NCBI GenBank assembly: GCA_041650805.1
Contig: JBAZKM010000004.1
Coordinates: forward strand, 41,636-105,635
Length of the DNA: 64,000 bases
Direction: 5' to 3'
Source of the DNA: Candidatus Omnitrophota bacterium
Lineage (GTDB): Bacteria; Omnitrophota; Gorgyraeia; 2-01-FULL-45-10
Positions 23,152 through 64,000 of this stretch are shown here, in pieces. A program made the translations under genes and the position numbers. A model generated the notes under the pieces. The model was not told where the DNA came from. It ran no database searches and saw only the letters and a program-made list of their open reading frames with translations. Every line of letters starts with the position of its first letter. The first letter of the stretch is position 1.

Positions 23152-23154
23152 TTT

Positions 23155-24147: not shown

Positions 24148-24170
24148 ATAGCAGATTAATCCTATAATAA

Positions 24171-38634: not shown

Positions 38635-41109
<2,475 letters not shown>

Positions 41110-41133
41110 TTTTCTCCTCGTTATAGAACCGTT

Positions 41134-41205
41134 GGTCCATAGTCGATAGTCCATGGTCCATAGTAAAAACTTTGGCCGTCGACTGTGGACCGTGGACTGT
41201 TGACC
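41134..41205. repeat. heptamer-based palindromic REP-like element in the gyrB-gyrA intergenic region
   Basis: ggtccat agtcgat agtccat ggtccat ag ...loop... gtcgact gtggacc gtggact gttgacc (imperfect inverted arms). Confidence 0.5.
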
Positions 41206-41222
41206 CGTTCATTTTTCGTATA

Positions 41223-43748
<2,526 letters not shown>

Positions 43749-43756
43749 TTAAGATA

Positions 43757-44059
43757 CTACACATCCCCTATCCTGAACCTCACGTTCCTTATCTTCTTTT
43801 TCTTCAGCTTCACCGAGAGCTTTTTGAGTATATCTTTCTTCTTCAGCGTCAATTCGTACAGCCACCCCGAGTCGTCCACGTTCACCACGAGCTCCGCCCT
43901 TCGTATGGCGACGGGCCGCGTGTGGCAGGCGGCCTTCCTGCCGGCCGCCCGGCGCCATGCGGCCCTTATATCCTCCTCCGTGACCGCCTTATCTTTCTTC
44001 AGGCCGGCTATTATATTTTCCAGTACGCCGTCCAGCGGCCCCTTAGGAGATCCGGCCAT
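43757..44059 (-). CDS. dciA: DUF721 / DciA-like protein (putative replicative helicase loader)
   Basis: 100-aa basic protein between dnaN and gyrB, the typical DUF721 position and size. Confidence 0.5.
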   Translation of the reverse strand: MAGSPKGPLDGVLENIIAGLKKDKAVTEEDIRAAWRRAAGRKAACHTRPVAIRRAELVVNVDDSGWLYELTLKKKDILKKLSVKLKKKKIRNVRFRIGDV

Positions 44060-44069
44060 GGCGCATCAC

Positions 44070-45167: not shown

Positions 45168-45334
45168 TATCTTTCGTCTCCTGTTAGTTCTACTTATCTT
45201 TTATAACAAATAGCAGCAGCACTTAGCAGTAGGGTCTGTTGATAAGTGAGTAAGTCATCAACCCCAATAGGAACAACGGATTGAAACCCGGGAGCATGAG
45301 CAATATTATAAATACTTATCAACATGATCAACAA

Positions 45335-46711
45335 TCAACTTTTAATATTTTTAATAAGCTTGTCGGTTATATCCCTTAAACCCTCTTTTGACTTAAGGTC
45401 GTTCTCTATCTTTTCACAGGCGTGTATAACGGTCGTGTGGTCCCTGCCCCCGAAGTTCTCACCTATCTCAGGTAAAGAGTAATCGGTCAGTTTGCGCGTG
45501 AGGTACATCGCGATCTGGCGCGGGTAAGCGACCGCCTTACTCCTGTTCTTCGCCTTCATGACAGAAAGTTTTATGTCGAAATATTCGCTCACCTTCTTCT
45601 GGATGAGCTCGATGGTGATCTTCTTCTCCCCCTCCACTATCATATCTTTCAGCACCTCCCTGGCAAGGTCCAGGGAGACATCCCTTCCTATGAGCTTGGA
45701 ATAAGCGACTACGCGTATAAGCGCGCCTTCCAGTTCCCTGATATTCGTCTTTATCTTCTCTCCCAGGAAGTAGAAAACGTCGTCGGGGAGCGCGATCGTC
45801 TCTTTTTCGGACTTCTTTTTCAGTATGGCGATCCTCGTCTCAAAATCGGGCGGCTGTATATCGGTGACGAGTCCCCACTCGAACCGCGATACGAGCCGGT
45901 CCTCGAGGTTCTGGATCTCTTTCGGCGGCCGGTCGCTGGAGACGACGATCTGCTTATGGGCGTCGAAAAGGGCGTTGAACGTGTGGAAGAACTCTTCCTG
46001 CGTCGACTCCTTGCCGGCGATGAACTGGATATCGTCTATCAGAAGGATGTCCACGTACCTGTACTTCTCCCGGAATTTCTGGGTGGTCCTGTTCTGGATG
46101 GCGCCTATGAGCTGGTTCGTGAACTCCTCGCTCGATATGTAGAGGATCTTCGTCTTGGGGAACTTCTGGACGGCGCTCTGCCCTATGGCGTGCATCAGGT
46201 GCGTTTTGCCCAATCCTACACCGCCGTATATGAAGAGCGGGTTGTACGCCTTTGCGGGGGATTCGCAGACGGCCATCGACGCGGCATGGGCGAACCGGTT
46301 GCTTGACCCGACGACGAAGCTCTCGAACGTATACTTGGGGTTGAGGCCTATCTCTTTCGGCGAGTCCGGGTTCTGGCGCGCGAACGGCCAGAACGGCTTC
46401 TCTTTCTTCGGCTCTTTTTTACGCGCGGGGTCTTCCCGCAGGGCCTCTTCGTCGCCCATCTCCTTGAGAGCGAATTCTACGCCGAGCTCTTTGCCGACGG
46501 CCTTTGCTATGCACGAACGTATCACATCCATGTACCGCTCGAGAAGCCAGCTCTTGAAGAACTTATTCGGGACTTCCAAAGTTATCGTGTCGGCGTTTAT
46601 GGATGAGCACCGTATCGGGCCGAACCAGATATCGAACGTCCGGTCGTTAGCGAGCTCCTTTTTGATCATCTCCCGGGCCTTGACCCATACGGCTCCGCCG
46701 TCAATCGCCAT
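45335..46711 (-). CDS. dnaA: chromosomal replication initiator protein
   Basis: Walker A GGVGLGKTHL, AAA+ boxes, C-terminal DnaA-box binding HTH (RDHTTVIHACEKI). Confidence 0.9.
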   Translation of the reverse strand: MAIDGGAVWVKAREMIKKELANDRTFDIWFGPIRCSSINADTITLEVPNKFFKSWLLERYMDVIRSCIAKAVGKELGVEFALKEMGDEEALREDPARKKEPKKEKPFWPFARQNPDSPKEIGLNPKYTFESFVVGSSNRFAHAASMAVCESPAKAYNPLFIYGGVGLGKTHLMHAIGQSAVQKFPKTKILYISSEEFTNQLIGAIQNRTTQKFREKYRYVDILLIDDIQFIAGKESTQEEFFHTFNALFDAHKQIVVSSDRPPKEIQNLEDRLVSRFEWGLVTDIQPPDFETRIAILKKKSEKETIALPDDVFYFLGEKIKTNIRELEGALIRVVAYSKLIGRDVSLDLAREVLKDMIVEGEKKITIELIQKKVSEYFDIKLSVMKAKNRSKAVAYPRQIAMYLTRKLTDYSLPEIGENFGGRDHTTVIHACEKIENDLKSKEGLRDITDKLIKNIKS

Positions 46712-46966
46712 AATATAGGACCTTACTTTGAGTTATCCACAACCCAATAACAACTTTTCAACACGAAAAAGGGGTTATCCACAAGTTACAAACAAGCATC
46801 GCAGCCGCGACGTTCAGTTATTATAGTAGATTATATAAAGTAGTGCAAGAGAAAAATGAGCCCGCCATTAAATGTATTGACTCAATTATTCTTTATGATA
46901 TAATTTAGCACACGCAATTTTGCTTTCGGGGGAAGACCGTCAGCTTAAAACAGGAAAGGGATGACC
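46712..46966. promoter_or_regulatory. oriC-like region with DnaA boxes
   Basis: Perfect TTATCCACA at 46733-46741 and 46775-46783, plus an AT-rich stretch at 46815-46860. Variant boxes TTATCAACA also occur in the dnaA-dnaN spacer (about 45215-45320). Confidence 0.55.
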
Positions 46967-47104
46967 ATGAAGTATACGCTAAGGGCGAAATCGAACCTCA
47001 GGAGAAAGAGAAAGCACGGGTTCAGGAAGAGGATGAAGGACCGCTGGGGCAGGGCCGTTCTGAAGAGGAGACGACAGAAAGGCCGGCACAAGCTCACCGT
47101 ATGA
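46967..47104 (+). CDS. rpmH: 50S ribosomal protein L34
   Basis: [45 protein letters not shown]. The ORF has no stop-free run long enough to appear in the ORF track. Confidence 0.85.
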
Positions 47105-47460
47105 TCTCCGACGGAGATTTTCCGAAAGAAGAACATCTTTTAAAGACAGGGGATTTCAGGAAGGTCTATAAGAACGGGTCGGCCCACAAGAGGGACCCCC
47201 TCTTTTTGTACCGCCTGCCGAACGCCGGGGAGACGATAAGGGTCGGTTTCTCGGTGAGCTCGCGCAGCATAAAACTGGCGACAAGACGGAACAGGATAAA
47301 GCGGCTTTTGCGCGAGGCATACCGGTTGAACAAGGCGAAGCTTAAAAAAGGGTTCGATATAGTCATAGTGGTGCGCAGGGATCCGTCCCCCGCATTGGCT
47401 TATAAAGATATAGAGAAGAAGTTCCTGGGCGTTGCCGGAGAGGCGGGTATATTGAAGTGA
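47101..47460 (+). CDS. rnpA: RNase P protein component
   Basis: ATGA overlap with rpmH. RNR motif region [23 protein letters not shown]. Confidence 0.85.
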
Positions 47461-47666
47461 AGAAGATAGCCATTTGCATGCTGAAGTTATATCGTAACTA
47501 TCTATCACCATTGAAGTTACAATGCTGCAGGTTTTACCCATCCTGTTCGGAATACGCCATCGGGGCCATAGAGAAACACGGCCTTTTATCCGGCGGCCTG
47601 AAGAGCATAAAGCGCATCCTGAGGTGCAACCCGTTCTCGCAAGGCGGGTACGATCCTGTCAAATAA
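47457..47666 (+). CDS. yidD: membrane protein insertion efficiency factor
   Basis: YRNYLSPL...[11 protein letters not shown] signature. Confidence 0.8.
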
Positions 47667-47682
47667 GAGAGAGTAATATATC

Positions 47683-49290
47683 ATGGAAAAACGGCTTGTC
47701 CTGGCAGTGGCATTATCGATATTGATCATCGTCTCATTCCAGTACTTCTTCGTGAAACCTCCTGTCCGCGCGCCGGATGTAAAGGGTGTGGTGAAGGAAG
47801 ATACGGCGCCCGTCCGGGCCGTTGTTAAGGAAGCGGCGGAACTGCCCCCATCCTTAGAGGCGCCCTCAAATATCGCTTTCGAAGAGGAAGAGCTTGAGGC
47901 AGATGCCGGGAAATATATCCTAACCTTCAGCAACGTCGGCGGTTCAATAAAAAAGATACGCCTGAAAGAGCATAAGAACCCGCATTCCACCGAAATGTTA
48001 GATTTGGTTGATCTAACAAATCCAAAGATGTATGTATTCTCTTTCTCCGATTCGACAGGCTCCCTCCCTTTCGACACAATAAAATATAATATCGAGAAGA
48101 GCGGTGACGATATAATCGCTTCTGCCAGGATAGGCGATATCGAAGTTGTGAAAAGATATGTATTACATAACTCTAAGCATATCATAGAGTTAGATATAGC
48201 AATAAAGAATATATCCGGCTCCTCGAGATCTTTCGGTTACAGAATAATAGGTGGTTCTGGGCTTAAAGAGCCGGATCCACAGGATGTAAGATTTATTGAA
48301 GTAAGATCCAAGGTGAACGGCATCATATTAAATTTTAAACATCCGAAGAAGGGGCGTATTACAAACCCCGGCATAGTGAGTTGGACCGCCATCAAGAATA
48401 AGTACTTCTGTATCGTGATGAAACCGTTCGGCGCGACGAAAGACCAGTTCTATAGCGAGGCGAAAGACGGTCTATTCAGCACAGGTATAGAATCGCCCTT
48501 GATCGAGATCCCATCGGGATCCGTTGTATCTCAGAAATTCATTCTTTATGCGGGGCCAAGCCAGATATCCCTGCTGAAGGAAGTGGGATTCGAATTTGCA
48601 GAGAGTGTAGATTATGGATTTTTCGGCGGGATAAGCAGGGCGCTCATAGCTGTGATGCGATTCTTCTATTTCCTTTTACATAGTTGGGGTCTATCCATAA
48701 TCCTCCTCTCCATATTTTTAAACCTTATACTATCCCCTCTCACATTTAAAAGTTTTAAATCTATGCAGAAGATGCAGGCCCTCCATCCGCAGATGGAGAA
48801 ATTGAAGGCACAGCATAAAGACAACCCGCAGAAATTGAATAAAGAGATGCTGGAGTTGTATAAAAAATATAAGATAAATCCTTTAAGCGGCTGTCTGCCG
48901 ATGCTCCTGCAGATGCCGATATTCATCGCCCTGTATAACGCGCTTATACGGTCTATAGAATTACGCGGGAGCACATTCTTATGGATAAGAGATCTCTCTC
49001 TGCCGGATGCGGTTAAGATCCCGATCACATTACCGATATTCGGTGACAGCATAAATATTCTGCCGCTCCTGATGGTCGGAGCCATGGTACTTCAACAGAA
49101 TATGTCTACAAAGCAGATGGGCAGCGCCGTTACCGATGAGCAGAAACAGCAACAGCGGATGATGTTGATAGTTATGCCTATCGTATTCGGGTTCATATTC
49201 TATAATATGCCATCCGGGCTCGTGTTATACTGGATAATAAATACGGTATTGACCGTTGTCGAGCAATACGCGATATTTAAGAATATATAA
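47683..49290 (+). CDS. yidC: membrane protein insertase YidC
   Basis: Periplasmic domain followed by the 5-TM core. Sits in the conserved rpmH-rnpA-yidD-yidC context. Confidence 0.85.
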   Translation: MEKRLVLAVALSILIIVSFQYFFVKPPVRAPDVKGVVKEDTAPVRAVVKEAAELPPSLEAPSNIAFEEEELEADAGKYILTFSNVGGSIKKIRLKEHKNPHSTEMLDLVDLTNPKMYVFSFSDSTGSLPFDTIKYNIEKSGDDIIASARIGDIEVVKRYVLHNSKHIIELDIAIKNISGSSRSFGYRIIGGSGLKEPDPQDVRFIEVRSKVNGIILNFKHPKKGRITNPGIVSWTAIKNKYFCIVMKPFGATKDQFYSEAKDGLFSTGIESPLIEIPSGSVVSQKFILYAGPSQISLLKEVGFEFAESVDYGFFGGISRALIAVMRFFYFLLHSWGLSIILLSIFLNLILSPLTFKSFKSMQKMQALHPQMEKLKAQHKDNPQKLNKEMLELYKKYKINPLSGCLPMLLQMPIFIALYNALIRSIELRGSTFLWIRDLSLPDAVKIPITLPIFGDSINILPLLMVGAMVLQQNMSTKQMGSAVTDEQKQQQRMMLIVMPIVFGFIFYNMPSGLVLYWIINTVLTVVEQYAIFKNI

Positions 49291-49305
49291 AAGATCGTCA
49301 AAAGC

Positions 49306-49334
49306 TTGACAAAAGACGGTTATTCAGGTATATT
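49306..49334 (+). promoter_or_regulatory. putative sigma70 promoter for parAB
   Basis: TTGACA (49306-49311), 17-nt spacer, TATATT (49329-49334). Confidence 0.4.
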
Positions 49335-49370
49335 TCTAGTAAAACGTTCCCCGTGGAACATTCCATAGAC

Positions 49371-50219
49371 ATGGCTAAAGTAATAGCGATATGTAATCAA
49401 AAAGGCGGTGTTGGAAAGACGACAACCGCAATAAATCTCGCCACTTGCCTTGCCTTATCAGGTATAAAGATACTGCTCATCGATATAGACCCACAGGGCA
49501 ACGCTACAAGCGGTTTAGGAATAGACAAGCATACTATAAAGACGAGCGTCTACGACCTCCTGGTGGACGAATCCGACCCAAAATCGGTCATTTTAAAGAC
49601 CGGCATAGATAACCTTTCCATCATACCGTCAAATTTGAATCTTACAGGCGCAGAGGTTGAGTTGGTTGGCATTATGGGTAGAGAGTATCGGCTCAAAAAG
49701 GCTCTTGCCGCAATAAGCCAGGATTACGATTTCATATTGATAGACTGTCCGCCATCGCTCGGTTTATTGACCATAAATGCTTTATCATCAGCATATTCCG
49801 TACTTATACCGATACAATGCGAATATTATGCACTTGAAGGGCTGAGTCAACTCTCTAATACTATAAATCTGGTAAGAGAAAACCTGAATCCTTCGCTGCT
49901 CATAGAAGGCGTTCTTCTTACGATGGCAGATTTCAGGACTAAGCTTACCAATGAAGTTATAAATGAAGTAAGGAACTTTTTTAAAGAGAAAGTATATAAC
50001 ACTGTGATACCCAGGAATATACGTTTAACAGAAGCGCCCGGTTTTGGGAAACCGATCGCCCTATATGATAAAAATTCGATCGGCGCTCAGAAGTACCAGG
50101 ATTTCACAAATGAATTTTTAGGAGTAAAGAAAGACGGCTCTGTTACTAGCCAGACAAATTTACATAACGATAGTATTGATAGTAACTTACAAAAAGTTGA
50201 GGAAGGAGAAGTTAAATGA
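49371..50219 (+). CDS. parA: chromosome partitioning ATPase ParA/Soj
   Basis: KVIAICNQKGGVGKTTTAINLA deviant Walker A. Confidence 0.85.
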   Translation: MAKVIAICNQKGGVGKTTTAINLATCLALSGIKILLIDIDPQGNATSGLGIDKHTIKTSVYDLLVDESDPKSVILKTGIDNLSIIPSNLNLTGAEVELVGIMGREYRLKKALAAISQDYDFILIDCPPSLGLLTINALSSAYSVLIPIQCEYYALEGLSQLSNTINLVRENLNPSLLIEGVLLTMADFRTKLTNEVINEVRNFFKEKVYNTVIPRNIRLTEAPGFGKPIALYDKNSIGAQKYQDFTNEFLGVKKDGSVTSQTNLHNDSIDSNLQKVEEGEVK

Positions 50220-51076
50220 CTCAAAGCCGAGCTTTAGGTAAAGGGTTGAGCGCACTCATCCCACAAAGGGAAGCGGCAGGTCCGGGTCCCCAGGAACAGG
50301 TGATGAACATCCCGATCTCACAGATAAGGACCAGTAAATATCAACCGCGCCTTGAGTTCAACCAGGAGAGGCTGAATGAACTGGTGAGCTCCATACGGGA
50401 GAAGGGAGTGGTGCAGCCGGTATTGGTCCGGCGTGTCGATAACGGCTATGAGTTGATCGCCGGAGAGCGGAGGCTGCGGGCCGTAAAGAATCTCGGGATC
50501 GCCAACATCCCCGCCATAGTCAGGGAGGTGGGGGAGATCGACATGCTAGAAATGGCGCTCATCGAGAACATACAGCGGGAAGGGCTGAACCCGATGGAGG
50601 AGGCCAACGCATTCCAGCGGTTCGCGACCGATTTTAATTTCACCCAGGAGAAGATAGCAAAGGTCCTCGGCAAGGACCGTTCTACCATTGCAAATACGCT
50701 TCGCCTTCTCGCCCTCCCGAAAAAGATACAGGAGTACATCTCCAAGAATATCCTGACGGCAGGACATGCGAAGGCGCTCCTTGCCCTCCCGACGGAGAGC
50801 GAGCAGCTGCGTGTCGCCACGCTCATAATAAAGAAAGCCCTCTCGGTACGGGAGACGGAACAACTGGTATCCAAAAGGGTCTCCGGCACCAAGAGGAGAC
50901 AGGCGCTCAAGGACCCCCACATAGGGGAGATCGAATCGCGCCTTCAGCAGGCGCTGGGGACCAGGGTGAAGATATTCCACGGGAAGAAGCGCGGGAGGAT
51001 ACAGATCGAATACTATTCTTACGAGGACCTTAACCGCCTCGTCGATATCTTTGCCCAGAAACCGGGCGCCAACTAA
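50216..51076 (+). CDS. parB: chromosome partitioning protein ParB/Spo0J
   Basis: GERR arginine patch (LIAGERRLRA), HTH, C-terminal dimerisation domain. Confidence 0.85.
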   Translation: MTQSRALGKGLSALIPQREAAGPGPQEQVMNIPISQIRTSKYQPRLEFNQERLNELVSSIREKGVVQPVLVRRVDNGYELIAGERRLRAVKNLGIANIPAIVREVGEIDMLEMALIENIQREGLNPMEEANAFQRFATDFNFTQEKIAKVLGKDRSTIANTLRLLALPKKIQEYISKNILTAGHAKALLALPTESEQLRVATLIIKKALSVRETEQLVSKRVSGTKRRQALKDPHIGEIESRLQQALGTRVKIFHGKKRGRIQIEYYSYEDLNRLVDIFAQKPGAN

Positions 51077-53226: not shown

Positions 53227-53411
53227 ATAAGTTATACGACAAGGCAGGCAGTACCTATAAGCTGGTGATAATGGCATCCCGCCGGGCGGTGGAGCTTAAC
53301 GAAGGGGCGGGCAAGCTCGTCGACGCGACACCGGACATGAAGCCGGGGGCGATCGCCCTGAAAGAGATACTCGAAGGGAAGATCTCGTTCAAGATCAAAG
53401 AGGAGAAATGA
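53208..53411 (+). CDS. rpoZ: DNA-directed RNA polymerase subunit omega
   Basis: 67 aa. YKLVIMASRRARELN-like block. Confidence 0.8.
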   Translation: MQAAPIDKLYDKAGSTYKLVIMASRRAVELNEGAGKLVDATPDMKPGAIALKEILEGKISFKIKEEK

Positions 53412-53953
53412 CCGCACGTCCGAAGTCGGTGATCCTGGGGGTAACGGGGGGCATAGCCGCTTACAGGGCATGCGAGATCATCACCATGTTGAGAAGGGAT
53501 GCCGTCGACGTCACCGTCCTCCTTACGCGGGAGGCGAAAGAGTTCATAGCTCCGCTTACGCTCCAGACGCTATCCGGCAATAAGGTCATATCCGATATGT
53601 TCGAGCTGCCCGATGAATGGAACCCCGTACATACGTCCCTGGCGGATAAGGCAGACCTTGTCATCATAGCTCCGGCGAGCGCAAATATACTGGGCAAGAT
53701 GGCCCACGGGATATGCGACGACATCATCACGTGCACCGTACTGGCTACGAAGGCACCCGTCCTGATAGCCCCTGCCATGAACGAGAAGATGTATAAGCAT
53801 AAAGCCGTCCGGGAAAATATAGAGCGGCTCAAATCCTTCGGTTACAACTTCGTAGGGCCGATCAAAGGGCGCCTCGCCTGCGGGCACGAAGATATAGGCC
53901 ACATCGCCGATACAAAAGAGATCGTAAGGGAAGCGAAACGGTTTCTACGGTGA
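53408..53953 (+). CDS. coaC: phosphopantothenoylcysteine decarboxylase (flavoprotein), separate gene
   Basis: VILGVTGGIAAYRA...APAMNEKMY motifs. Confidence 0.75.
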   Translation: MTARPKSVILGVTGGIAAYRACEIITMLRRDAVDVTVLLTREAKEFIAPLTLQTLSGNKVISDMFELPDEWNPVHTSLADKADLVIIAPASANILGKMAHGICDDIITCTVLATKAPVLIAPAMNEKMYKHKAVRENIERLKSFGYNFVGPIKGRLACGHEDIGHIADTKEIVREAKRFLR

Positions 53954-54624
53954 ACCCCGCATCCAGCAAAAGACCCAAATATATAGTGGTGACGGCCGGA
54001 CCGACCCGGGAGAAGATAGACCCGGTCCGTTTCATATCCAACTACTCGACGGGGACGTTCGGGTACGAGATCGCCGGGGAGGCGCGCCGCAGGGGCCATC
54101 GCGTAACGCTCGTGAGCGGGCCTGCATGCCTCAAGAGGCCGGCAGGCGTCAGGCGGATCATGGTCGAGAGCGCGACGGAGATGCGTTCTGCGCTCTCGGG
54201 GGAGTTCAAAAAGGCCGACTGCGTGATAATGGCGGCGGCCGTATCCGATTGGAGGCCGCTGTCGAGCCGGTCGAGAAAGATGAAGAGGGCCACCGGCAGG
54301 AAGATCGTGCTAGAGATGGCCGAGAACCCGGACATACTTGCAGGGCTCGGCCGTAAAAAAGGGAATAAGGTGCTGGTAGGGTTTGCCCTGGAGACCGAGC
54401 ATATGTATACAAATGCCCTGAAGAAATTAAGAGAGAAGAATCTCGACCTTATAGTCGCGAACAGGTGTTCAAAGGGCGGCACGGCTTTCGGTCCCGGGAA
54501 GACGGATATAGCGATCATCGACAGGCGGGGAGGCCGGACCTCTGCGCGCGGGAGATCGAAGCGCGAACTCGCCAAAATTATTCTTGACAAGGTTCTTGAC
54601 CGCACGTATAGTGGCAAATTATGA
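53950..54624 (+). CDS. coaB: phosphopantothenate--cysteine ligase, separate gene
   Basis: VVTAGPTREKIDPVRFISNYSTGTFG. GTGA overlap with the coaC stop. Confidence 0.7.
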   Translation: MNPASSKRPKYIVVTAGPTREKIDPVRFISNYSTGTFGYEIAGEARRRGHRVTLVSGPACLKRPAGVRRIMVESATEMRSALSGEFKKADCVIMAAAVSDWRPLSSRSRKMKRATGRKIVLEMAENPDILAGLGRKKGNKVLVGFALETEHMYTNALKKLREKNLDLIVANRCSKGGTAFGPGKTDIAIIDRRGGRTSARGRSKRELAKIILDKVLDRTYSGKL

Positions 54625-55061
54625 GGATGATGAAAAGTTCGCGGGGTTTCACTATAATAGAGGTGGTAGTCGTCGTCGCGGTATTCCTTGCGATCATCTC
54701 GATATTGGGACCGTTTGTGCGCATGGTCAAAGACCGGGCCAGCGCGATACAATGCGAAAATAATCTGAGGCGCCTCAGCATCGCGCTGCATACGTACGCC
54801 TCCGAACACGAAGATGCGTTCCCGCCGGATCTCGGGGCGCTCTACCCGGATTACGTCGGGGACCAGAAGGTATTCGACTGCGCGGCGAGCGGCTCTTTCG
54901 GCACACCCGAAAAGCCCGACTATTCGTACGCCCCCGGCCTGACGGAATCGTCGCTTCTCAAGACGCCGATCGTCGAGGACGCCGCCGGTAACCACGGCAG
55001 GAAAGGGAAGAATATCCTCAGGGTGGACGGTTCCGTAGAGTGGGCGGGTAGAAGATTTTAA
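54621..55061 (+). CDS. prepilin-type N-terminal domain pseudopilin with DUF1559 (H-X9-DG) domain
   Basis: GFTIIEVVVVVAVFLAIISIL methylation motif. HGRKGKNILRVDGSVEW C-terminal motif. Confidence 0.6.
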   Translation: MRMMKSSRGFTIIEVVVVVAVFLAIISILGPFVRMVKDRASAIQCENNLRRLSIALHTYASEHEDAFPPDLGALYPDYVGDQKVFDCAASGSFGTPEKPDYSYAPGLTESSLLKTPIVEDAAGNHGRKGKNILRVDGSVEWAGRRF

Positions 55062-55620: not shown

Positions 55621-58600
55621 ATGTCAGACGCTAGATCTGGTAGTACTCCTAATGTGATCTTGAATAGACGCCCATTCAGGGTGACGATCGCCATTGTCAC
55701 CCTGTGGGCGTTTTTACTTAATATTGTAGCATACGATCTGGCCTGGGCTGCCGGAACGCCTACAGAGCTTACTAGCGTCGGCCCTGATAGAGCCGGCGGC
55801 CCGGGCGTTGTGAAGGAACTGGACGCTTCGACATTTTCATTACCCCAGTATCTCGGTTCTATCCGCGACTCCTGGTCCCCTAAACCCTATACCCTATACC
55901 CTATACCCAATACTATAATCCACATCCAAGACGCCCACTGCAACTATTATGCCCAGCACAAGATAAAAGAGATAATAGAGTATCTGAATAGAGAATACGG
56001 CGTAGATACCGTAAATCTCGAGGGTGGGGCGATGGGTTACGACCTGTCCCCGTTTACGGATATACGCGACAAAGATATCCGCGAAAAGGCGACCGACCAT
56101 TTCGTGAAAGAGGGTTTGGTGAACGGCGCAGAGTACTTCGCCATCAACAACCCGGAGAAGATAGCGCTTTGGGGGGTAGAGGATGCCCGGCTCTATGTCG
56201 ATAACCTCAATGTCTACAGGAGTTCAGCCGTCCGCAAGGCCGAGATCGAGAAGCATATTAAATCGCTCAACCACATCATCAACAACTTAAAACCGAAGAT
56301 ATATTCGAAAGAGCTTCTCGAGTTCGACCTGGCATATTCCTCATACAAGGCGCACAATTCGGAATTCAAAGATTACCTGTCATACCTCATAACGAAAGCA
56401 AAAGAGAGGGCCATCAACGTAAAACAATTTACAAATATCTACATCCTAAGCCGGACGCTCGGCGAGGAGGGGAAGGTCGATTTTAAAAGAGCGAATATCG
56501 AACGCGACGTTATGATAGATGCGCTCGGGAAACGGCTTTCGAAAAGCGCTCTCGAGGAACTTGTGGTGAAGACGGTTGAATTCAAGGCGGAGAGGATATC
56601 GCAAAAGGAATTTTACGCGTACCTCACAGGTAAGGCGAAAGTCGCCGGCTTGGACATGGACGGCTTCCCCGAACTCCGCAGGTATATTATCTATATCTCT
56701 ATGTACGAAGCGGTCGATAAGCCGAGCGTCATGGAAGAGATAGATGCCCTGGAAGCGAAGCTTCTGGAAGGCCTATATCGGAACGAGGAAGAGAGGACCT
56801 TAAGCCGTCTTTCGAAGAACCTGGCGTTATCGAAGAACATATTCGACATCTCGCTTACCAGGGACGATTACCGTTACTACAAGAAGAACGAGGCGTCGTT
56901 CGATATGCGTAACTACGCCGTGTTCATCGAGCGGGAAGCGCCTGCGCGCGGTATCACGGCAAAGCTCGACAACGATATAGCCCACCTCGACAACTATAGG
57001 CGGGAGATGGCGAAGTTCTACGAGTATTCATTCAAGCGCGATGAGGCGTTCATACGGAATATTAAGTTAGGGGGTATAGGGTATAGGGTATCGGGTATAG
57101 TAACCCGAAAACCAGGGGCCGCGATCCTCGTGACCGGTGGGTTCCATTCCGAGAACCTCGCAGAACTATTCAAGAAGAACGATATCGCCTACGTATCGAT
57201 CATGCCGAACTTCAGATCCGGCGACGAGTATGAGTGCCCGTACTTCAAGATCCTTTCAGGCGAGAAGAATATCAGGATAAAAGAGTCATTACCGGCGGTC
57301 CTCACCGGCATGCTCCCGGTACCGGATCAGCTGAATCCGGCGGTGATGAGAGAGCTCGAAAAAACCCAAAAACCGTTGGGCGCGGGAAGGATGAGGATGC
57401 AGGGGGAGCATGCATTTACACAGTTTTTGACGCGCATAGAACCGCTCCTTCTTATGTCTGAGGCCCTGTTGCCCATAATAATAGACAGGGCCATACAAAG
57501 ATATGAGAGGACGAAAGAGCCGCAGGTTATCAATATAGGGATCGTGGGGGCAGGATATGGCCAGGAACCCGTATCCGTGGCGATCGCCCTTGATAGAAAG
57601 ATAAGAAGTATGCTTGAGGACCGGCGTCTTCCCGGGGATTCTGTGAAGCTTGCAGTCCATATCATGAGCAGGCCGTCCCCCATGCTCGATAAGCTTAGAG
57701 ATAATGGAATAAGGTATCCGGCAGATTCGATCGCGCGACAGATCGCTCTCGGCAATATCTCAGAGACCGAACGGGACAGGTATTTTGAAGATACGGGAAC
57801 AGGGTCAAGGCGCACCCAGGCCCTGAACGATATCATGAAGTTTTATGAAGTCGATCTTTTGGACGATCCGCAGGCAGAGGTGCCGCCTCTCGATGCGCTA
57901 TTGGTCCACAATATCCTGCAGTATCTGATGCCGGGTGATATGCAAAGTGCGCAAGCGGCATTCGGATATCTGGGTTCAATGGTAAAGCCGGGCGGGATCA
58001 TTTCAGTCACGTCCCCGGAAGGAACCGCCGACAGATACGTTAAGGCAGCGTATGATGAGATGTTTAGCGGCCGCGGCGGATATGAGCAAGCGAAATTTGA
58101 AGGGTTACCCGTAGAGACAGTATTTTTTGTGAAGAAGACACCGCCCGCGCCGCAGGCCGGGTTCGGTCGCCTTGAGGTGATCTCAGGCGTAGCGGTGCTG
58201 ACGGCAGCGGCAGCGACTTTCCACGCCGCAGGCATCGCCGCGGCGCTCGTTGTCGGGATCGCCGGCGCGCTCGCAGCAGCGCTCTTATTCAGGTATCTCA
58301 ACCGGGCAACGTCGGAAGAAAAGACGGCCACACCGACACCTCATGAGGCCATGATAAGAGAATTATGGGGAAGCGTTCCGCGACCGATCGGTGATGCGGA
58401 ATTGCGAAAAGCCATCATAGAAAGATCTTTTTCTGGTGAAGCAGCCATGCGATGGGGTGCTGACACGTTGTCGGACCTTATCGATTTTAATAAATCGAGG
58501 GCAGGGACGCTATATATTACGGCTATCATAGAAGCCAGTTTACCCAAGTTAGGGATAATGATACCGGACAATTTTATGTACGGCCCTGCAATGACACCGG

Positions 58601-61600
58601 AAGAGATAAGATCGGCAAAAGAACGCGCAGAACTCCAGGCCATCGAGAATAGGATATCTCGTTTTACCGATGAATTAAGCGCTCTATTTGCAGACCTTGA
58701 TCGCATCCGCGGGCTTATCGAAAAAGACCTGATAACGGCGGAGCAGTTAAAAACAGCCACAAGATTATCCGGCGGAAATATGAAAATAGCCTGTGAGACG
58801 TTTGCCGCATTGGAAGGTTCGATAAGAAGCAGACAGGATATAGAAAATTTAATAAGATCGGCCGAGCGCAATAACAACATATTTATCATAAATGCGGCCA
58901 ATTTTGGTATTAATGACACCTTCAGCTGGCTTGCCCGCCATAGAGAATTTATCAATCGTTATGGGACTAACGGTATAGCTGTTTTAGGGCAGGTGCTGCG
59001 CTCCGGCCGCGTTCTTTTCGGTTCAAATCAATCTGAGAAGATCTGTGATTTTCTGGAAAAAAATGCAAGATATGTCGAATTATACGGGATGGAATATTTA
59101 TGTACTGCGGTAGCCGTATTAAATGATGAGCAGCTTCAGAATATGAGCAGCCCTCGTCGCATTAATATCTTCGAACCTACCCTCAACATCGGCAAGGTTA
59201 TCACAGAGGATAGCATGCTTAACGGTGCAAGGGTATTCTTCGAAGACCTCGTGGCAGCAAATAATGAAAGCGATAGATTGAAGCCAGAGGCCCAATTTAA
59301 CGAGTCTATAATAAGAACGATTAATGAAAATACCATGTCGCGGTACGGTCTTGACAAGATGCTTATCCTAAGCAGATCCCACAACTTAACAGCAGTGGCT
59401 ATTTATTTTACGAGAATAAGGCCTGTGGTAGATAAGGTCGGCATACAGGCGTTTATCGACGCAGTAGAAAATAAGGGCGAGATATCCGCAGATCTCGTGG
59501 CGGCTATCCCGGAACTTCTCAGGGTAGATCTGACCTTTGCCGGCGCGGGCCATCAAAAGGCTCAAGAATATGCCAACTATATATTGGGCACGATAGCGAA
59601 AAGGTCTACCGATGCTCTGCAGGCGCTTGTAGAAGCCACTACAGATACAGATGATGATATAAAAAGAGGCGCATATTCAGTTTTGGATACGGTTATGCCA
59701 AATCTCGGCGCTACTCTCAGATTTCACGGCGACATAGGGCCGGTAGGGCGCAAGATCGTCGTAGAATTTCTGGCCATGTCGGACCTTGAAAGATTAAGCC
59801 CATACAGGTTATATCTGTACATAGGGCGATTGGCCGAGAACGGGAATACTATAGACCGTATAAAGAACGCGGATAGACGCAGGCAGGCGATAAATAATGT
59901 CATAAACAAGGCCGACAGGGATTATGGAAACTTCACAAAAAGCGTGTACTATGGAGGAAAGACCGGGGATTATTCAATGTATGTCGGCCTTCTCAGCATG
60001 CTTTCCGATGAGGATTTTGAGAAAGACGTTCATGATATAGCCGCGGCCCTAAACGTCACCGCAAAAGACAGGAGTATAACTGATACATTGAGCGAGATCG
60101 ATGGAAAAGTCATCACACAACCTGTGAACGTTCAATATGTAAGCGCGTTCGATTTCGAAACAAAAAAGACGGAACTGGCGCTGCCGGACGATTTAGATAT
60201 CGAATTCAAAAATATGATCAGCACGATTTTCGGGTCAGCTGGAGAAGCGGATATTGACACCATCCTGGCGAGGATCACCGCCGTCAAGGCGAGTGTTGAT
60301 GCCCTGGAAGGAAGGGATAAAGCGGAAGTGACCGCGTTTTTCAACGGTAATAATGTACCTGATAACCTCCGGGCGCAGTGGAATACGGAAGATCCTAAAA
60401 GACACGAAACCGCTAAAGTAAATATCAAAAATTTTCTATACACCAGGATGGATATTTCAGACGAAGAGAAGACGGTATTGTTCCTGAAAGTTTTTGAACA
60501 CATGGGCGCGGAATTATTGCGAAAATACATAACTCCCGGGGCCGAGCTTTCCCCGGATGAGAGGAACCTTATCTTTTCGATGCTGAGAGAGGCGGACAGA
60601 CATCTTGCTGATACCATGCAGGAAATGGGGCTTGGCGCGCTGGCCGACAACCTAAAGAAGAAACCCGAATGGAAACTGATGAAGACATTACAGGGTAAGA
60701 TAAAGACGACAGTTGACGGTAATGTAAGGTCTGGCAAAAAAATAGAGCTGGTTTTCAGGGCAAAGAACCTTCTTACCCTCTATCAGGGGGCCTACTCGGG
60801 GACGTGTTTCGGAGACCGCCCTTACGATATAGCGCGACCGGACCTTTTTGTCGTCACTATATTAAGTAACGGAGAGCTTGCGGGTTCTGTCCTGTTCAAT
60901 ATACAAGGCAATAAATTGATAATGCTCGGTTTTGACCCGTCAGAAGCGCTGATGTGCGGCCTTGATGACACAAAGAGAAATGAGCTCGTAGACCATATCA
61001 TGGCCGAGATATTCAGTTTCACCAAAGCGCGTATCGTGGATCAGGACGGCAAAATTACGGCAGAGAACGATTATGAGTTATTGATCACTACAGAAGCAGG
61101 AGGCCTATCGAACAGGGACAAGGTGCAGGATTATATAATAAGTGAATACGTAACCGGGGGTAAGGTAAGAGTGGACCGGAGGACCTATCATCCACTATAT
61201 CAATACAGCGTTACTTCGGCGCAAAAGGCGAAGACAAGAAATGTAAAACCGAAAATGATCAAAACCACGCCTTCACCCGAGGCAGGATTCGGCGGTCTTG
61301 AAGTTATGACAGGCATTGCGGTATTGGGGGCGGCAGTGGCCGCCTTCCACGCCGCAGGCATCGCCGCGGCGCTCGCCGTCGGGATAGGCGGCGCGCTCGC
61401 AGCAGTGCTCTTGTTCAGATACCTCAGCCGCAATATTTCAGTGTCTCCGGCCGTTACCGCATCTACTAAGGGGACATCCCAGAGCAGTATGACCTGGGAC
61501 CCCATCGGATATTTTGACCTTGTAAAGCGTTTTGGAGGGCATGATTATGGCGCCGATCCGGCAGCGGACAAGATGCTGCTTGAACAGACAGGGAAGTGGT

Positions 61601-64000
61601 TCGGGACTAACGAGCCCGACTGGGGCGTCTCATTAAACGAAATGCGGGGCAAGAAAGGCGTTTATATCGGCGTCGCATACGGAGGGCAGAACCTTTCGCG
61701 GCTTTGCTACGGCGATTTTGAACAGGCCCTTATCGTAGACAGCAACCCCTTCGTAACCGAAATATTCATGCCTATAAGGGCGGTCCTTATTGCCATGGCC
61801 AGGTCTCGCGCGGAATATCTCGGTTTTCTTGCCGGCGTACGATTAAATGAGACCGAACTGGAAATGCTCAGGGATGCCGACCTTTCTCATATCGAATCCT
61901 ATATCTCAGGCAGGGCATTCACGGAAAAGGACAGGACGGCCGCGTTCAGAAACGAACTCTGGGGCAGGATACAGGGGATATTCCCTTCTCATTTAGCCGG
62001 ACAGGCAAGCACATTCTGGGAACTTTATGCGCCGGGAGGCTTCGGTCTCTCCTCCATGGTGAGAAATATGGATCGCGGCGACAGCTGGCTGTCAAGCGAA
62101 AGGAATTTCGCCAGGATACGAAAGATGACCTCGGAGGGCAGAATCTACGGTGTAACGGCCGATTGGGCGGACGCAGCGTCGATAAGCCCGATAGCGCGCT
62201 ATATGTCGGATCACGGATTGAAGGCGTCCGTTATTTATGTTTCCAATATCATGGAACGGATCGACGAGATAGAAGACAGGACTAAAAGAGAAAAGACCGC
62301 TAACGCGTTCAGGGGCAATATCCTCTCGATGCCCCGTACAGATGATGCCGTCCTTTTGTCTGTTTCTGTTTCCGAAGGTACCGGTCTCGGCAGGCCTTAT
62401 AAAACAATGACCAGGAGCATAGAGGAAGAGGCAAAGAGGACGGTCTTTGACAGGAGCCGGGGAGATAATTATGCCGTTATTGCCCCTGTTCCGTTCTCCG
62501 CGCAGGCAGGTTTCGGCATGGTCGAGGTCATGACCGGCGTCACGATACTGGGAGCGGCAGCGGCCGCCTTCCACGCCGCAGGCATCGCCGCGGCGCTCGC
62601 CGTCGGGATTGGCGGCACGATCGCAATCATACTCTTCTTAAAATACGCGGGGCGCGCGAAGGCAGGAGAGAAGGTGATCCTATTGGTGCCCGAACCTGCG
62701 CCGTCAAAAGTGTATATGCGCAACGCGGCCATGAATATCCTTTTCCTGGCTGTATTGGCGGTCATCCCCACGGTCCTGAGCCTGCTCGAGCCGAACCTGC
62801 CCATGCTTTCGCTGGTGCTGGACATGTCCCGCGAAACCGGGTTGTCGAAGGTGGTTTTCTACCTGTTAGGGGTAGCAGGCATTACAAAGTTGGTTGCCAA
62901 TACGGCCATGGTGATAATGCGGGACGGATCGGTCAGGGCAATCAGGTCGCTCAGGTCTTTTGGGCGTTTCAACTCACGCGATGTCATTAAGCTCCTCGCG
63001 GTCCTCATCGTCTTTATCGGGGCCGCGGAGTGGAAAGCGGTGAGTTTCATGGCCCGCTCAGATGTCACTACAATAGACGCGCACGGCGCCAGGATCAGGG
63101 TATATTTCGACCCGGCCAGGTCGGTACGGGACGAGGTGGGCAGTTATGTCGGGCGCTATCTGAATAACCTGCCGGCAGGGCACACCGAAGGGCTTGAGCG
63201 CATATCCGTCCTGCCCTATGATGCGCTCGGGGCGTTCGAAACGGCCAACGATTCGGCCGGGACGTATCGTTTTTTAACCGACACGGTCAGGATCAGGGAG
63301 GGCAGGGTCGAAGACGGCAGCGTCGTCTATCATGAGATAGGCCATCACGTCAACGCCGCCGTATTGGGCGCAGGGCAGAAGATGAAGTGGAATGCGCTGC
63401 ACAGGGCAAGCGGGGATAGTGACGCCGGTTACGTCTCAGCATACGCCAAAACTTCCGCATCGGAGGATTTTGCCGAGACGTATGCGGCATACTGCACGGG
63501 CTCGCTCCATTGGTTGGCAGATACGGACGGTATCCTTGCCGAAAAGGTGCTATTCGTCACCCGCCTTTTTATGGAGCAGGGCGCAGGCGGCGCCAGGTAC
63601 CTTGTCTATTTCAGCGATGATAACGAAATAACAGCGTCTACCAAGCATCGTCTCAGGATAGAAGAGAAGTATATGGGGGTCGATTATCTTCGGGAAAGAG
63701 TGGGGGCGCTCAGATGGTTTTTGGAAAAAGACCGCGGCCTGAGAGATATCATGAGTAACGATGATGCGGATACATTCAGAAAGTGGCTCGAGGAGAGACA
63801 TAGCGGGACCGGAATAAATGTCAACAGTACTTATCTTGTCCCGCTTTCCATGGATGACCTATGCAGTATGCGGAGTAACCTTGATTATGCCTCGGAATAC
63901 GTCGCCAGAACCGCGGGCAGGGCGCGGGACGAAAGGATCCAGAGGCAGGCATCTGCCCTTGTCGGCAGCATAGCGGGCTACAAAAAGAAGCTGGGTATAT
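55621..64000 (+). CDS. giant multi-domain membrane protein, N-terminal 2793 codons (continues past window end)
   Basis: Manually translated with no stop from ATG 55621 (RBS GAAGGAAA; in-frame TAA at 55510) to 64000. Signal anchor at the N-terminus. TraB/Tiki-like (IIHIQDAH...VTGGFHSEN), CheR-like (IGIVGAGYGQEP...LVHNILQYL...VKPGGII) and ATLF-like zincin (YHEIGHHV...SEDFAETYAAY) blocks. Three conserved two-helix hydrophobic units (predicted TM hairpins) plus further TM helices near 62.7-63.0 kb. Confidence 0.7.
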   Translation, partial: MSDARSGSTPNVILNRRPFRVTIAIVTLWAFLLNIVAYDLAWAAGTPTELTSVGPDRAGGPGVVKELDASTFSLPQYLGSIRDSWSPKPYTLYPIPNTIIHIQDAHCNYYAQHKIKEIIEYLNREYGVDTVNLEGGAMGYDLSPFTDIRDKDIREKATDHFVKEGLVNGAEYFAINNPEKIALWGVEDARLYVDNLNVYRSSAVRKAEIEKHIKSLNHIINNLKPKIYSKELLEFDLAYSSYKAHNSEFKDYLSYLITKAKERAINVKQFTNIYILSRTLGEEGKVDFKRANIERDVMIDALGKRLSKSALEELVVKTVEFKAERISQKEFYAYLTGKAKVAGLDMDGFPELRRYIIYISMYEAVDKPSVMEEIDALEAKLLEGLYRNEEERTLSRLSKNLALSKNIFDISLTRDDYRYYKKNEASFDMRNYAVFIEREAPARGITAKLDNDIAHLDNYRREMAKFYEYSFKRDEAFIRNIKLGGIGYRVSGIVTRKPGAAILVTGGFHSENLAELFKKNDIAYVSIMPNFRSGDEYECPYFKILSGEKNIRIKESLPAVLTGMLPVPDQLNPAVMRELEKTQKPLGAGRMRMQGEHAFTQFLTRIEPLLLMSEALLPIIIDRAIQRYERTKEPQVINIGIVGAGYGQEPVSVAIALDRKIRSMLEDRRLPGDSVKLAVHIMSRPSPMLDKLRDNGIRYPADSIARQIALGNISETERDRYFEDTGTGSRRTQALNDIMKFYEVDLLDDPQAEVPPLDALLVHNILQYLMPGDMQSAQAAFGYLGSMVKPGGIISVTSPEGTADRYVKAAYDEMFSGRGGYEQAKFEGLPVETVFFVKKTPPAPQAGFGRLEVISGVAVLTAAAATFHAAGIAAALVVGIAGALAAALLFRYLNRATSEEKTATPTPHEAMIRELWGSVPRPIGDAELRKAIIERSFSGEAAMRWGADTLSDLIDFNKSRAGTLYITAIIEASLPKLGIMIPDNFMYGPAMTPEEIRSAKERAELQAIENRISRFTDELSALFADLDRIRGLIEKDLITAEQLKTATRLSGGNMKIACETFAALEGSIRSRQDIENLIRSAERNNNIFIINAANFGINDTFSWLARHREFINRYGTNGIAVLGQVLRSGRVLFGSNQSEKICDFLEKNARYVELYGMEYLCTAVAVLNDEQLQNMSSPRRINIFEPTLNIGKVITEDSMLNGARVFFEDLVAANNESDRLKPEAQFNESIIRTINENTMSRYGLDKMLILSRSHNLTAVAIYFTRIRPVVDKVGIQAFIDAVENKGEISADLVAAIPELLRVDLTFAGAGHQKAQEYANYILGTIAKRSTDALQALVEATTDTDDDIKRGAYSVLDTVMPNLGATLRFHGDIGPVGRKIVVEFLAMSDLERLSPYRLYLYIGRLAENGNTIDRIKNADRRRQAINNVINKADRDYGNFTKSVYYGGKTGDYSMYVGLLSMLSDEDFEKDVHDIAAALNVTAKDRSITDTLSEIDGKVITQPVNVQYVSAFDFETKKTELALPDDLDIEFKNMISTIFGSAGEADIDTILARITAVKASVDALEGRDKAEVTAFFNGNNVPDNLRAQWNTEDPKRHETAKVNIKNFLYTRMDISDEEKTVLFLKVFEHMGAELLRKYITPGAELSPDERNLIFSMLREADRHLADTMQEMGLGALADNLKKKPEWKLMKTLQGKIKTTVDGNVRSGKKIELVFRAKNLLTLYQGAYSGTCFGDRPYDIARPDLFVVTILSNGELAGSVLFNIQGNKLIMLGFDPSEALMCGLDDTKRNELVDHIMAEIFSFTKARIVDQDGKITAENDYELLITTEAGGLSNRDKVQDYIISEYVTGGKVRVDRRTYHPLYQYSVTSAQKAKTRNVKPKMIKTTPSPEAGFGGLEVMTGIAVLGAAVAAFHAAGIAAALAVGIGGALAAVLLFRYLSRNISVSPAVTASTKGTSQSSMTWDPIGYFDLVKRFGGHDYGADPAADKMLLEQTGKWFGTNEPDWGVSLNEMRGKKGVYIGVAYGGQNLSRLCYGDFEQALIVDSNPFVTEIFMPIRAVLIAMARSRAEYLGFLAGVRLNETELEMLRDADLSHIESYISGRAFTEKDRTAAFRNELWGRIQGIFPSHLAGQASTFWELYAPGGFGLSSMVRNMDRGDSWLSSERNFARIRKMTSEGRIYGVTADWADAASISPIARYMSDHGLKASVIYVSNIMERIDEIEDRTKREKTANAFRGNILSMPRTDDAVLLSVSVSEGTGLGRPYKTMTRSIEEEAKRTVFDRSRGDNYAVIAPVPFSAQAGFGMVEVMTGVTILGAAAAAFHAAGIAAALAVGIGGTIAIILFLKYAGRAKAGEKVILLVPEPAPSKVYMRNAAMNILFLAVLAVIPTVLSLLEPNLPMLSLVLDMSRETGLSKVVFYLLGVAGITKLVANTAMVIMRDGSVRAIRSLRSFGRFNSRDVIKLLAVLIVFIGAAEWKAVSFMARSDVTTIDAHGARIRVYFDPARSVRDEVGSYVGRYLNNLPAGHTEGLERISVLPYDALGAFETANDSAGTYRFLTDTVRIREGRVEDGSVVYHEIGHHVNAAVLGAGQKMKWNALHRASGDSDAGYVSAYAKTSASEDFAETYAAYCTGSLHWLADTDGILAEKVLFVTRLFMEQGAGGARYLVYFSDDNEITASTKHRLRIEEKYMGVDYLRERVGALRWFLEKDRGLRDIMSNDDADTFRKWLEERHSGTGINVNSTYLVPLSMDDLCSMRSNLDYASEYVARTAGRARDERIQRQASALVGSIAGYKKKLGI
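55885..55913. repeat. heptamer array (CCTATAC) x4 inside the giant ORF, inverted relative to 57074-57100
   Basis: ccctata ccctata ccctata cccaatac encodes PYTLYPIPNT. Confidence 0.6.
57074..57100. repeat. heptamer array (GTATNGG) x4 inside the giant ORF
   Basis: gtatagg gtatagg gtatcgg gtatag encodes GIGYRVSGI. The C in the third unit avoids an in-frame TAG. Confidence 0.6.
58150..58300 (+). repeat. intragenic repeat R1 encoding the hydrophobic hairpin unit AGFGRLEVISGVAVLTAAAATFHAAGIAAALVVGIAGALAAALLFRYL
   Basis: Shares an identical 31-nt core (ttccacgccgcaggcatcgccgcggcgctcg) with R2 and R3. Confidence 0.7.
61282..61431 (+). repeat. intragenic repeat R2 (AGFGGLEVMTGIAVLGAAVAAFHAAGIAAALAVGIGGALAAVLLFRYL)
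   Basis: Same 31-nt core; about 85% nt identity overall to R1 and R3. Confidence 0.7.
62504..62649 (+). repeat. intragenic repeat R3 (AGFGMVEVMTGVTILGAAAAAFHAAGIAAALAVGIGGTIAIILFLKY)
   Basis: Same 31-nt core. Followed by additional TM helices. Confidence 0.7.

Follow-up and report, generated by a model that had tools for sequence, protein, structure and literature searches.

A very long gene at the edge of the window

We analyzed a stretch of 64,000 nucleotides from a Candidatus Omnitrophota bacterium (contig JBAZKM010000004.1 of assembly GCA_041650805.1), referred to here as the window, which ends within a very long gene referred to as the giant gene. On the plus strand the frame from the ATG at 55621 to the window edge at 64000 was found to contain 2,793 codons and no stop. 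At a GC content of ~51% the chance of a stop-free run of this length is ~(61/64)^2793, which by our own arithmetic is roughly 1e-58. The closest in-frame stop 5' of the ATG is at 55510, and a Shine-Dalgarno-like sequence, GAAGGAAAC, is located 8-15 nt 5' of the ATG. An earlier model reading of the letters alone (the sequence-only reading) had already found this frame open to the window edge. It was also right as to why the frame was missing from the list of open reading frames (ORFs), because the ORF lister leaves out frames that run off the window edge.

The 3' end of the gene, which the sequence-only reading lacked, was recovered on ENA contig ERZ27247363:k141_736944 (locus L081). The contig matches the window without a mismatch along the ORF (8,380 nt) and the 10 kb upstream, and there the frame runs for 6,413 codons before it ends with TAA. 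The gene end projects to 74862 in window-style coordinates. Based on the stop-free translation, the identical ENA contig and the protein records, the window portion (55621..64000) represents the 5' 44% of the gene (2,793 of 6,413 codons), and 3,620 residues lie beyond it.

An exhaustive HMMER search with residues 892-1890 returned a 100% identical protein of 6,400 aa (P0121, NCBI MFA5146512.1), which carries the title 'MAG: FHA domain-containing protein [Candidatus Omnitrophota bacterium]' (MAG, metagenome-assembled genome). The gene had been taken to be unannotated. It is instead already deposited in NCBI, JGI and ENA, and the record of the locus is corrected here to that of a deposited gene named for a minor domain. 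The two deposited protein versions map to one ~204-kb contig and differ in their start. The JGI/ENA version (P0156; 6,413 aa) starts at ATG 55621 with MSDARSGS, while the NCBI version starts at TTG 55660 with MNRRPF. We prefer ATG 55621 because members of the protein family described below share the N-terminus M-x-x-ARS[N/G/D]; the NCBI start is probably 13 codons too short.

The head is shared by a large Omnitrophota family

When the whole window product was used as the query, 288 proteins were identified, and every named one was from Omnitrophota. The organism had been guessed to be Omnitrophota-like from the letters alone, in agreement with these homologues and with the NCBI record. The 120 proteins listed were 1,582-4,541 aa long. 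They align with the giant protein only over residues ~1-570, with 45-61% identity, while their tails are unrelated. We refer to the shared part as the head. At least 410 loci in species-representative genomes encode it, and the best 80 of these 410 were all from Omnitrophota MAGs or from MAGs automatically labelled 'uncultured Planctomycetia'. Many genomes, including the complete chromosome CP070780.1, recur two or three times among the best 80. The sequence-only reading had pointed to Omnitrophota and related phyla as the place to look for homologous giant genes, and it is the head that they have in common.

The head is N-terminal in nearly all cases. Complete head-bearing ORFs in the loci encode ~0.9 to 3.6 thousand residues (kAA), and a dozen exceed 3.9 kAA. 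Pfam domains found in the tails include HATPase_c, UbiB/ABC1 together with M48 peptidase, phosphoenolpyruvate (PEP)-utilising enzymes, protein kinases, GNAT and several methyltransferases, as well as metallophosphoesterases, patatin, SLT, CheB, CheR, helicase domains and TPR. The giant gene thus belongs to a large paralogous family, in which a Sec-type leader and a head of ~500 aa are followed by unrelated enzyme and binding modules.

Neither Pfam nor NCBIfam contains a model for the head. Text searches of the two giant-protein papers (Nielsen and Lui, 2026; West-Roberts et al., 2023) did not find the words TraB, Tiki or esterase or a shared N-terminal family, and a literature text search for Omnitrophota together with TraB gave nothing relevant. 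Within the literature searched, the head family and its pattern of constant head and variable tail look undescribed.

Could the long frame be an artefact, either because neighbouring genes were fused by an assembly or sequencing error or because the open frame is not translated as one unit but from internal starts? The contig is present in a single assembly only, and a canonical-looking internal twin-arginine signal, MSRRDFLKMGAKAAVVALAAATL, starts with a Met at residue 4742 of the full protein. However, one frame is stop-free over 19.2 kb, the Met of the internal signal is not preceded by a Shine-Dalgarno-like sequence, and hundreds of independent assemblies contain genes of the head family, 0.9 to >4.5 kAA in size, that have the same head-plus-tail layout. 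Complete long-read Omnitrophota genomes also confirm long single ORFs. An artefact is therefore very improbable. In 13 loci of one paralogue lineage the neighbourhood fabG-fabF-acd-etfB-etfA is kept upstream of the head gene. This conserved synteny indicates vertical inheritance and speaks against mobile cargo. Altogether, the giant gene is one real chromosomal gene of the Candidatus Omnitrophota bacterium, vertically inherited and 6,413 codons long.

A constant N-terminal head in front of hypervariable tails, seen over at least 288 proteins, is also the architecture of polymorphic toxins. The giant protein could be a processed effector polyprotein similar to MARTX or polymorphic toxins, where the head traffics and/or cleaves itself and the tail is cargo freed into a host or prey cell. 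The target cell would have ATP and S-adenosylmethionine (SAM) on hand, and the hydrophobic hairpins described below would aid insertion into the target membrane. Several paralogues that carry cofactor-dependent enzymes behind an export leader, with no transmembrane (TM) segment, are in line with this, and cleavage and predation roles have been proposed by others for the protein class. On the other hand, RTX repeats, a cysteine protease domain, Rhs and known toxin or secretion domains were not detected with Pfam and NCBIfam, either in the residues encoded within the window or in the 3,620 aa that follow, and a known cleavage site is lacking. Considering also the evidence from fold, modules and gene context given below, we find it unlikely that the giant protein is an effector of this kind.

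The leader and the head domain

Hydropathy and the family-wide comparison identified residues 1-43 (55621..55749) as a Sec-type leader or signal anchor. It consists of a basic n-region (NRRPFR) and a hydrophobic core of ~23 aa, followed by AWA|AG. The 106 family members with complete N-termini have on average 4.3 K+R before the core and 1.8 after it, and a mean of 3.0 acidic residues after it. Behind the core, 84 of the 106 members have AxA and 68 have AWA. The signal anchor proposed from the letters alone is consistent with the hydrophobic segment at residues 18-43 and with a charge bias that is family-wide. These features suggest a Sec-type signal of N-in/C-out orientation, possibly cleaved, which predicts that the head is extracytoplasmic. 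Tiki, PrgY and ChaN have an established extracytoplasmic location, and the prediction for the head agrees with this.

The head domain (residues 62-552; 55804..57276) has an alpha/beta core of the Tiki/TraB/ChaN/erythromycin-esterase fold, which is split by an all-helical insert of ~290 aa. Its invariant residues are Q103-D-A-H106, E134 (in NLEGG) and T505-G-G-F-H509. D104-x-H106, E134 and H509 were invariant across an alignment of 32 head sequences, with an Asp in place of the first Glu of the TIKI superfamily. In the structural model these catalytic-type residues are located at strand ends, behind strands 59-65, 91-94 and 461-467, and the model has the central parallel beta-sheet that characterizes the superfamily. 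When the head was compared to the PDB with Foldseek, BcR135 ranked first and EreC and HopBA1 were among the top eight; the best match, at E=0.13, was not significant. A family profile of the head had no match among PDB sequences.

The head is probably an active, divergent TIKI-type hydrolase; its proposed homology to the superfamily derives from fold and motif order and not from profile statistics. The sequence-only reading had named a TraB/GumN/Tiki-like domain, which was essentially right as judged by fold and motif order, but the Pfam TraB match (PF01963) that it expected is absent. Two effectors are among the fold relatives of the head, the MARTX endopeptidase RRSP and HopBA1, a type III effector, and this would also suit a delivered effector.

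Modules behind the head

Residues 640-846 (57538..58158) make up a CheR-like class I SAM methyltransferase with the motif I sequence IVGAGYGQEP. The match to PF01739 (E=3.8e-7, 30.2 bits) is above the gathering score of 27 but partial, covering profile positions 89-171 of 195. Matches to O-methyltransferase and CheR in the PDB were weak. No CheR_N match and no equivalog match was found (NCBIfam PRK10611 gave 15 bits against a cut-off of 435), so the module is best named a CheR-like class I methyltransferase. The CheR-type methyltransferase of the sequence-only reading is upheld in that PF01739 exceeds its gathering score, but the match is marginal and lacks CheR_N.

The next segment, residues 897-1369 (58309..59727), is nearly without detectable relatives. 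In the exhaustive HMMER search with residues 892-1890, nearly all matches began past query residue ~430, and the segment had one match of 27% identity, in locus L032. The matches correspond instead to a domain of ~500 aa at residues 1370-1875 (59728..61245), which has no Pfam match and which we term the GTCFG domain after its conserved columns. Its motifs are G1723-x3-G-T-C-F-G1731, D1772-x-S1774 and G1827-G-x-S-N1831. It was identified in 34 further representative clusters, at varying positions in long proteins, where it is accompanied by HEAT repeats or GNAT, or as stand-alone proteins of 440-530 aa. In none of these 34 clusters did the domain match Pfam or the carrier possess the head, and modules are therefore shuffled between different families of long proteins. 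The GTCFG domain is an autonomous, undescribed domain family.

Residues 1994-2249 (61600..62367) match the Pfam domain DUF7790 (PF25046; E=6.8e-15, 55.6 bits against a gathering score of 23), which the giant protein has in common with 5 of the 120 listed head-family members. This places a family name on what had been described as a ~330-aa segment of unknown function.

From residue 2480 to the end of the window product at residue 2793 (63058..63999), and continuing beyond it, there is a zincin-like module with the motifs H2571-E-I-G-H and E2615-D-F-A-E, that is, HExxH and a downstream Glu ligand. Matches to Peptidase_Mx1 (20.6 bits, gathering score 25.6), Peptidase_Mx and TIGR04549 were all sub-threshold. 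A homologous module is found after a TM block in paralogue P0008, where HEVGHH and ELFAE are kept (22% identity, E=8e-8). A word-indexed homologue search with the zincin segment found nothing, and an AF2 model made from two sequences had a pLDDT of 33. The module is a probable zincin. The proposed likeness to anthrax lethal factor was not borne out, since PF07737 (ATLF) was absent at E<=1, and only the HExxH and ExFAE motifs stand.

The part of the protein beyond the window contains two to three FHA domains (E=7e-34), ~2,000 residues without Pfam match and further HExxH sites at residues 4914 and 6044. The full protein thereby has three HExxH motifs where 0.10 are expected, which counts in favor of an effector polyprotein. 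Against it, the set of FHA, methyltransferase and HEAT-type partners looks regulatory rather than toxic.

Two further observations were made beyond the window. Residues ~4400-5400 contain three copies of a LPPMGGGMSPEQ(V/I)RSGLE.GTLK.EDL... repeat, each followed by a region of ~250 aa without Pfam match. The internal twin-arginine signal at residue 4742 (~24224 in L081) reads M-SRRDFLK-MGAKAAVVALAAATL and may be a relic of a once separate exported protein or an internal targeting element.

Repeated two-helix units

The soluble modules are separated by a near-identical two-helix hydrophobic unit, of which three copies were identified in the window by hydropathy and a hidden Markov model (HMM) of the unit, at residues 845-896 (58153..58308), 1887-1938 (61279..61434) and 2295-2346 (62503..62658). 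This arrangement had been described correctly from the letters alone. Each unit reads AGFGxLEV, helix, FHAAG (FHAAGIAAAL), helix, FRYL. It has ~42 hydrophobic residues in a repeat of 45 aa, with F-H-A-A-G in the center and small residues spaced G-x3-A-x3-G-x3-A. Such a pattern fits tight helical hairpins, which would keep the flanking modules on one side of the membrane. The third copy is followed by three further TM segments predicted by hydropathy, at residues 2364-2393, 2408-2433 and 2455-2478 (62710..63054). The sequence-only reading took the TM helices for a C-terminal block, whereas the block is situated mid-protein with the 3,620 residues beyond the window still to follow.

Two more units, a degenerate one and additional TM segments are located beyond the window. 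By the unit HMM, the full protein has five strong copies and one weak copy, and hydropathy predicts the leader and ~17 helices over its 6,413 aa. The HMM found no copy in 155 other proteins or 80 loci. The unit is therefore private to the giant protein and is not a signature of the family. Because the soluble modules around the units are unrelated to each other, it is the unit itself, and not whole modules, that has been duplicated or homogenised.

A stretch of 31 nt, covering the ten codons for F-H-A-A-G-I-A-A-A-L, is identical in units 1-3 (58219-58249, 61345-61375 and 62569-62599). It occurs exactly three times in the window where 0 occurrences are expected. The DNA of units 1-3 is 68-77% identical, and nearby codons vary freely while the ten shared codons are without a synonymous difference. 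Units 4-5, beyond the window, differ at the synonymous sites of the stretch, and no match to the 31-nt core was found in metagenome contigs. The identity could result from local gene conversion or from a constraint at the nucleotide level.

Hairpin-like internal clusters were found in 41 of the 120 listed family members, and 42 had no internal TM segment at all. Paralogues P0008 (residues 1605-1680 and 2223-2299) and P0035 (residues 1015-1087 and 1744-1820) have duplicated TM units of their own, unrelated to those of the giant protein; the units of these two paralogues have in common a second helix of the type ...(M)PWGWIA... / ...GMWGLIIAG.... Repeated, private TM spacers thus seem to be a recurring design in the head family. 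We also considered whether the AGFG units could be sortase-type sorting signals (PEP-CTERM, PGF-CTERM and similar). This was rejected, as no NCBIfam match was found at E<=1 and the units are internal and have two helices.

Genomic context

The giant gene is a leading-strand gene amid core genes, with oriC at a distance of ~9 kb. The minus strand near the origin carries gyrA, gyrB, dnaN and dnaA, and the plus strand upstream of the giant gene carries rnpA, yidD, yidC, parA, parB, ndk, yicC, gmk, rpoZ, coaC, coaB and a small prepilin-like gene. The cumulative GC skew has its minimum at ~44-46 kb of the window, where the skew changes sign. The window therefore contains the chromosomal replication origin region (38635-51076). 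Between the prepilin-like gene and the giant gene are genes for tRNA-Cys and tRNA-Val, followed by an AT-rich spacer of 375 nt. A scan for sigma-70 promoters and terminators 5' of the giant gene gave no match. The genes 3' of it on the ENA contig are thrS, infC, rplT, pheS and pheT.

This housekeeping, syntenic context speaks against an effector, as does the downstream gene, which is thrS and not an immunity-like gene. No match was found in the libraries of defence systems (PADLOC) and phage proteins (PHROGs), and the neighbourhood of the giant gene shows no sign of a mobile element.

The prepilin-type gene (54621-55061) directly 5' of the two tRNA genes and the giant gene has the methylation motif GFTIIE and is DUF1559-like. 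An association with type IV pili or type II secretion was rejected as a trait of the family, since a prepilin motif was found near only one or two of 80 loci and the neighbours are not syntenic. Its adjacency to the giant gene is probably incidental. CoaC (flavoprotein, 53408-53953) and CoaB (DFP, 53950-54624) are encoded by two overlapping genes and not by the usual fused coaBC.

At 19700-24200 the window has a low-GC island (32-33% compared to ~53% elsewhere), which adjoins the tRNA-Asp gene at 24446-24522. Two minus-strand genes at 20284-23151 and 23155-24147 are found here. One of the encoded proteins, of 955 aa, combines TPR, GreA/B-C and PIN domains (Pfam PIN-TPR-GreABC, E=1.3e-18); the other is a TPR protein of 330 aa, and the tRNA gene is next to the pair. 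The island looks like a horizontally acquired system of the conflict type.

Topology and possible function

The reading that we favor, with middling confidence, is that of an envelope-resident modular protein, in which an exported TIKI-type hydrolase head is followed by hairpin-stapled modules that form a lineage-specific surface tool set for a host or prey. The leader would insert N-in/C-out and export the head to the outer face of the cytoplasmic membrane, where it would work as a hydrolase, i.e., a peptidase or an esterase. Between modules, the hairpin units would anchor the chain in the membrane again and leave its side unchanged, while TM blocks with an odd number of segments, here residues 2364-2478, would flip it. 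A single chain could in this way hold lineage-specific activities at the envelope, plausibly for use on a host or prey cell, in line with what others have suggested for the class. If the leader places the head outside, the lack of a TM segment between head and methyltransferase together with side-keeping hairpins implies that residues 44-2345 are all extracytoplasmic.

Several observations weigh against this reading. A periplasmic head and true hairpins put the SAM-dependent methyltransferase where its cofactor is not expected, and paralogues without internal TM segments, e.g., P0033 and P0039, place ATP- or PEP-dependent modules right after the leader. Most units have K/R on both flanks, and the positive-inside rule then assigns the flanks to the cytoplasm, in conflict with the orientation of the leader; all topology considered here is from hydropathy alone. 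As for the head, the Foldseek support from the PDB is not significant, and residues 1-600 had no Pfam or NCBIfam match at E<=1, including to PF01963 and the erythromycin esterase profiles.

In a different arrangement, the N-terminal segment and hairpins would act only as tethers that hold the protein on the cytoplasmic side of the cell's own membrane, and all enzyme modules would form a membrane-bound signalling or metabolic assembly in the cytoplasm. The modules do call for cytoplasmic cofactors or ligands, as SAM is used by the methyltransferase and phosphothreonine is bound by FHA, and paralogues carry kinases, HATPase, PEP-utilising enzymes and GNAT domains. The turn of the K/R-flanked hairpin units is uncharged, and 'TM-only' is reported as the commonest predicted class among long Omnitrophota proteins. 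However, throughout the family the charges of the leader are strongly biased towards N-in/C-out and the AxA motif is conserved. With no TM segment between the two, a cytoplasmic methyltransferase requires a cytoplasmic head, contrary to what the leader predicts, and most proteins with a related fold are extracytoplasmic or are secreted effectors. We regard an all-cytoplasmic assembly as conceivable yet doubtful. The two roles suggested from the letters alone, an effector or toxin and a machine that remodels the cell envelope, are both hypotheses at this point.

The paradox of an export leader in front of cofactor-dependent modules can be solved in three ways: the modules act in the host or prey cell, the leader is misleading, or the domains serve as binders and not as enzymes. 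The same topology paradox has been remarked upon in the class-wide literature on long Omnitrophota proteins. In a further reading, the head would define a phylum-wide platform of constant head and swappable cargo. It would be an exported self-processing protease, which cuts its own chain at or near the conserved flanks of the hydrophobic spacers and sets lineage-specific enzymes free beside or inside a host or prey cell. We think this rather improbable. Were it true, the head family would be the Omnitrophota counterpart of MARTX or polymorphic toxins, and its protease fold would be one without an earlier link to autoprocessing of giant proteins.

For very long Omnitrophota proteins in general, the open puzzle is whether they stay one chain or are cut, on which membrane face they are located and how they affect hosts. 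The head provides a conserved, foldable domain of ~500 aa with a predicted catalytic site, which marks more than 400 genes and is amenable to expression and mutagenesis in isolation. The short duplicated spacers offer a handle for topology, and the large family allows one to ask if the tails diversify like conflict genes.

Comparison with known systems

Very long, TM-studded multi-enzyme proteins of Omnitrophota have been catalogued in two preprints (class 1 in Nielsen and Lui, 2026; West-Roberts et al., 2023), and long Omnitrophota proteins are likewise noted in the Lipocone-superfamily paper of 2025. The class described has a multi-enzyme architecture, 94% of its proteins have TM helices or a signal peptide, and a predation-related role has been proposed by others. 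The giant gene is a shorter, new member of this already known class. It is from the same phylum, as are its named homologues except for some automatic 'uncultured Planctomycetia' labels. The giant protein is tiled by unrelated domains (TIKI-like head, CheR-like, GTCFG, DUF7790, zincin-like and two to three FHA), and it has a leader, TM helices along the chain as predicted by hydropathy and large stretches without Pfam match. It differs in length, with 6,413 aa compared to the published cut-offs of 10 and 30 kAA; it thus falls below the >=10,000 aa used for the 2026 catalogue, which is an operational and not a biological limit. The proteins described in the two preprints have SecA-like domains, and C39 and S8 peptidase domains are the only ones mentioned in the passages found on their N-terminal regions. 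The giant gene is furthermore not flanked by type II secretion genes, only by the one small prepilin-like gene.

The defining features of the TIKI superfamily (Tiki, TraB/PrgY, GumN, ChaN, erythromycin esterases, RRSP and HopBA1) are a parallel-sheet core and a catalytic set of two His and two Glu, E-x-H...E...H. In the head, catalytic-type residues at the ends of strands keep the order of the superfamily, as [D/E]-x-H, E and G-x-x-H, and the membrane tethering behind a leader that is predicted for it is known from Tiki and PrgY. Unlike the superfamily, the head has no profile-level similarity, carries an Asp for the first Glu and a helical insert of ~290 aa, and in every case is followed on the same chain by variable modules that run to thousands of residues.

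With MARTX, polymorphic toxins and polyvalent proteins the giant protein shares a constant N-terminal part and swappable enzymatic modules downstream. MARTX contains the TIKI-fold module RRSP, and paralogue P0103 carries an ART-PolyVal domain. Compared to MARTX and polymorphic toxins, the giant protein is without RTX repeats, a cysteine protease domain, Rhs/YD Pfam matches, immunity genes and a mobile context, and what distinguishes it in turn is the presence of TM hairpins between its modules.

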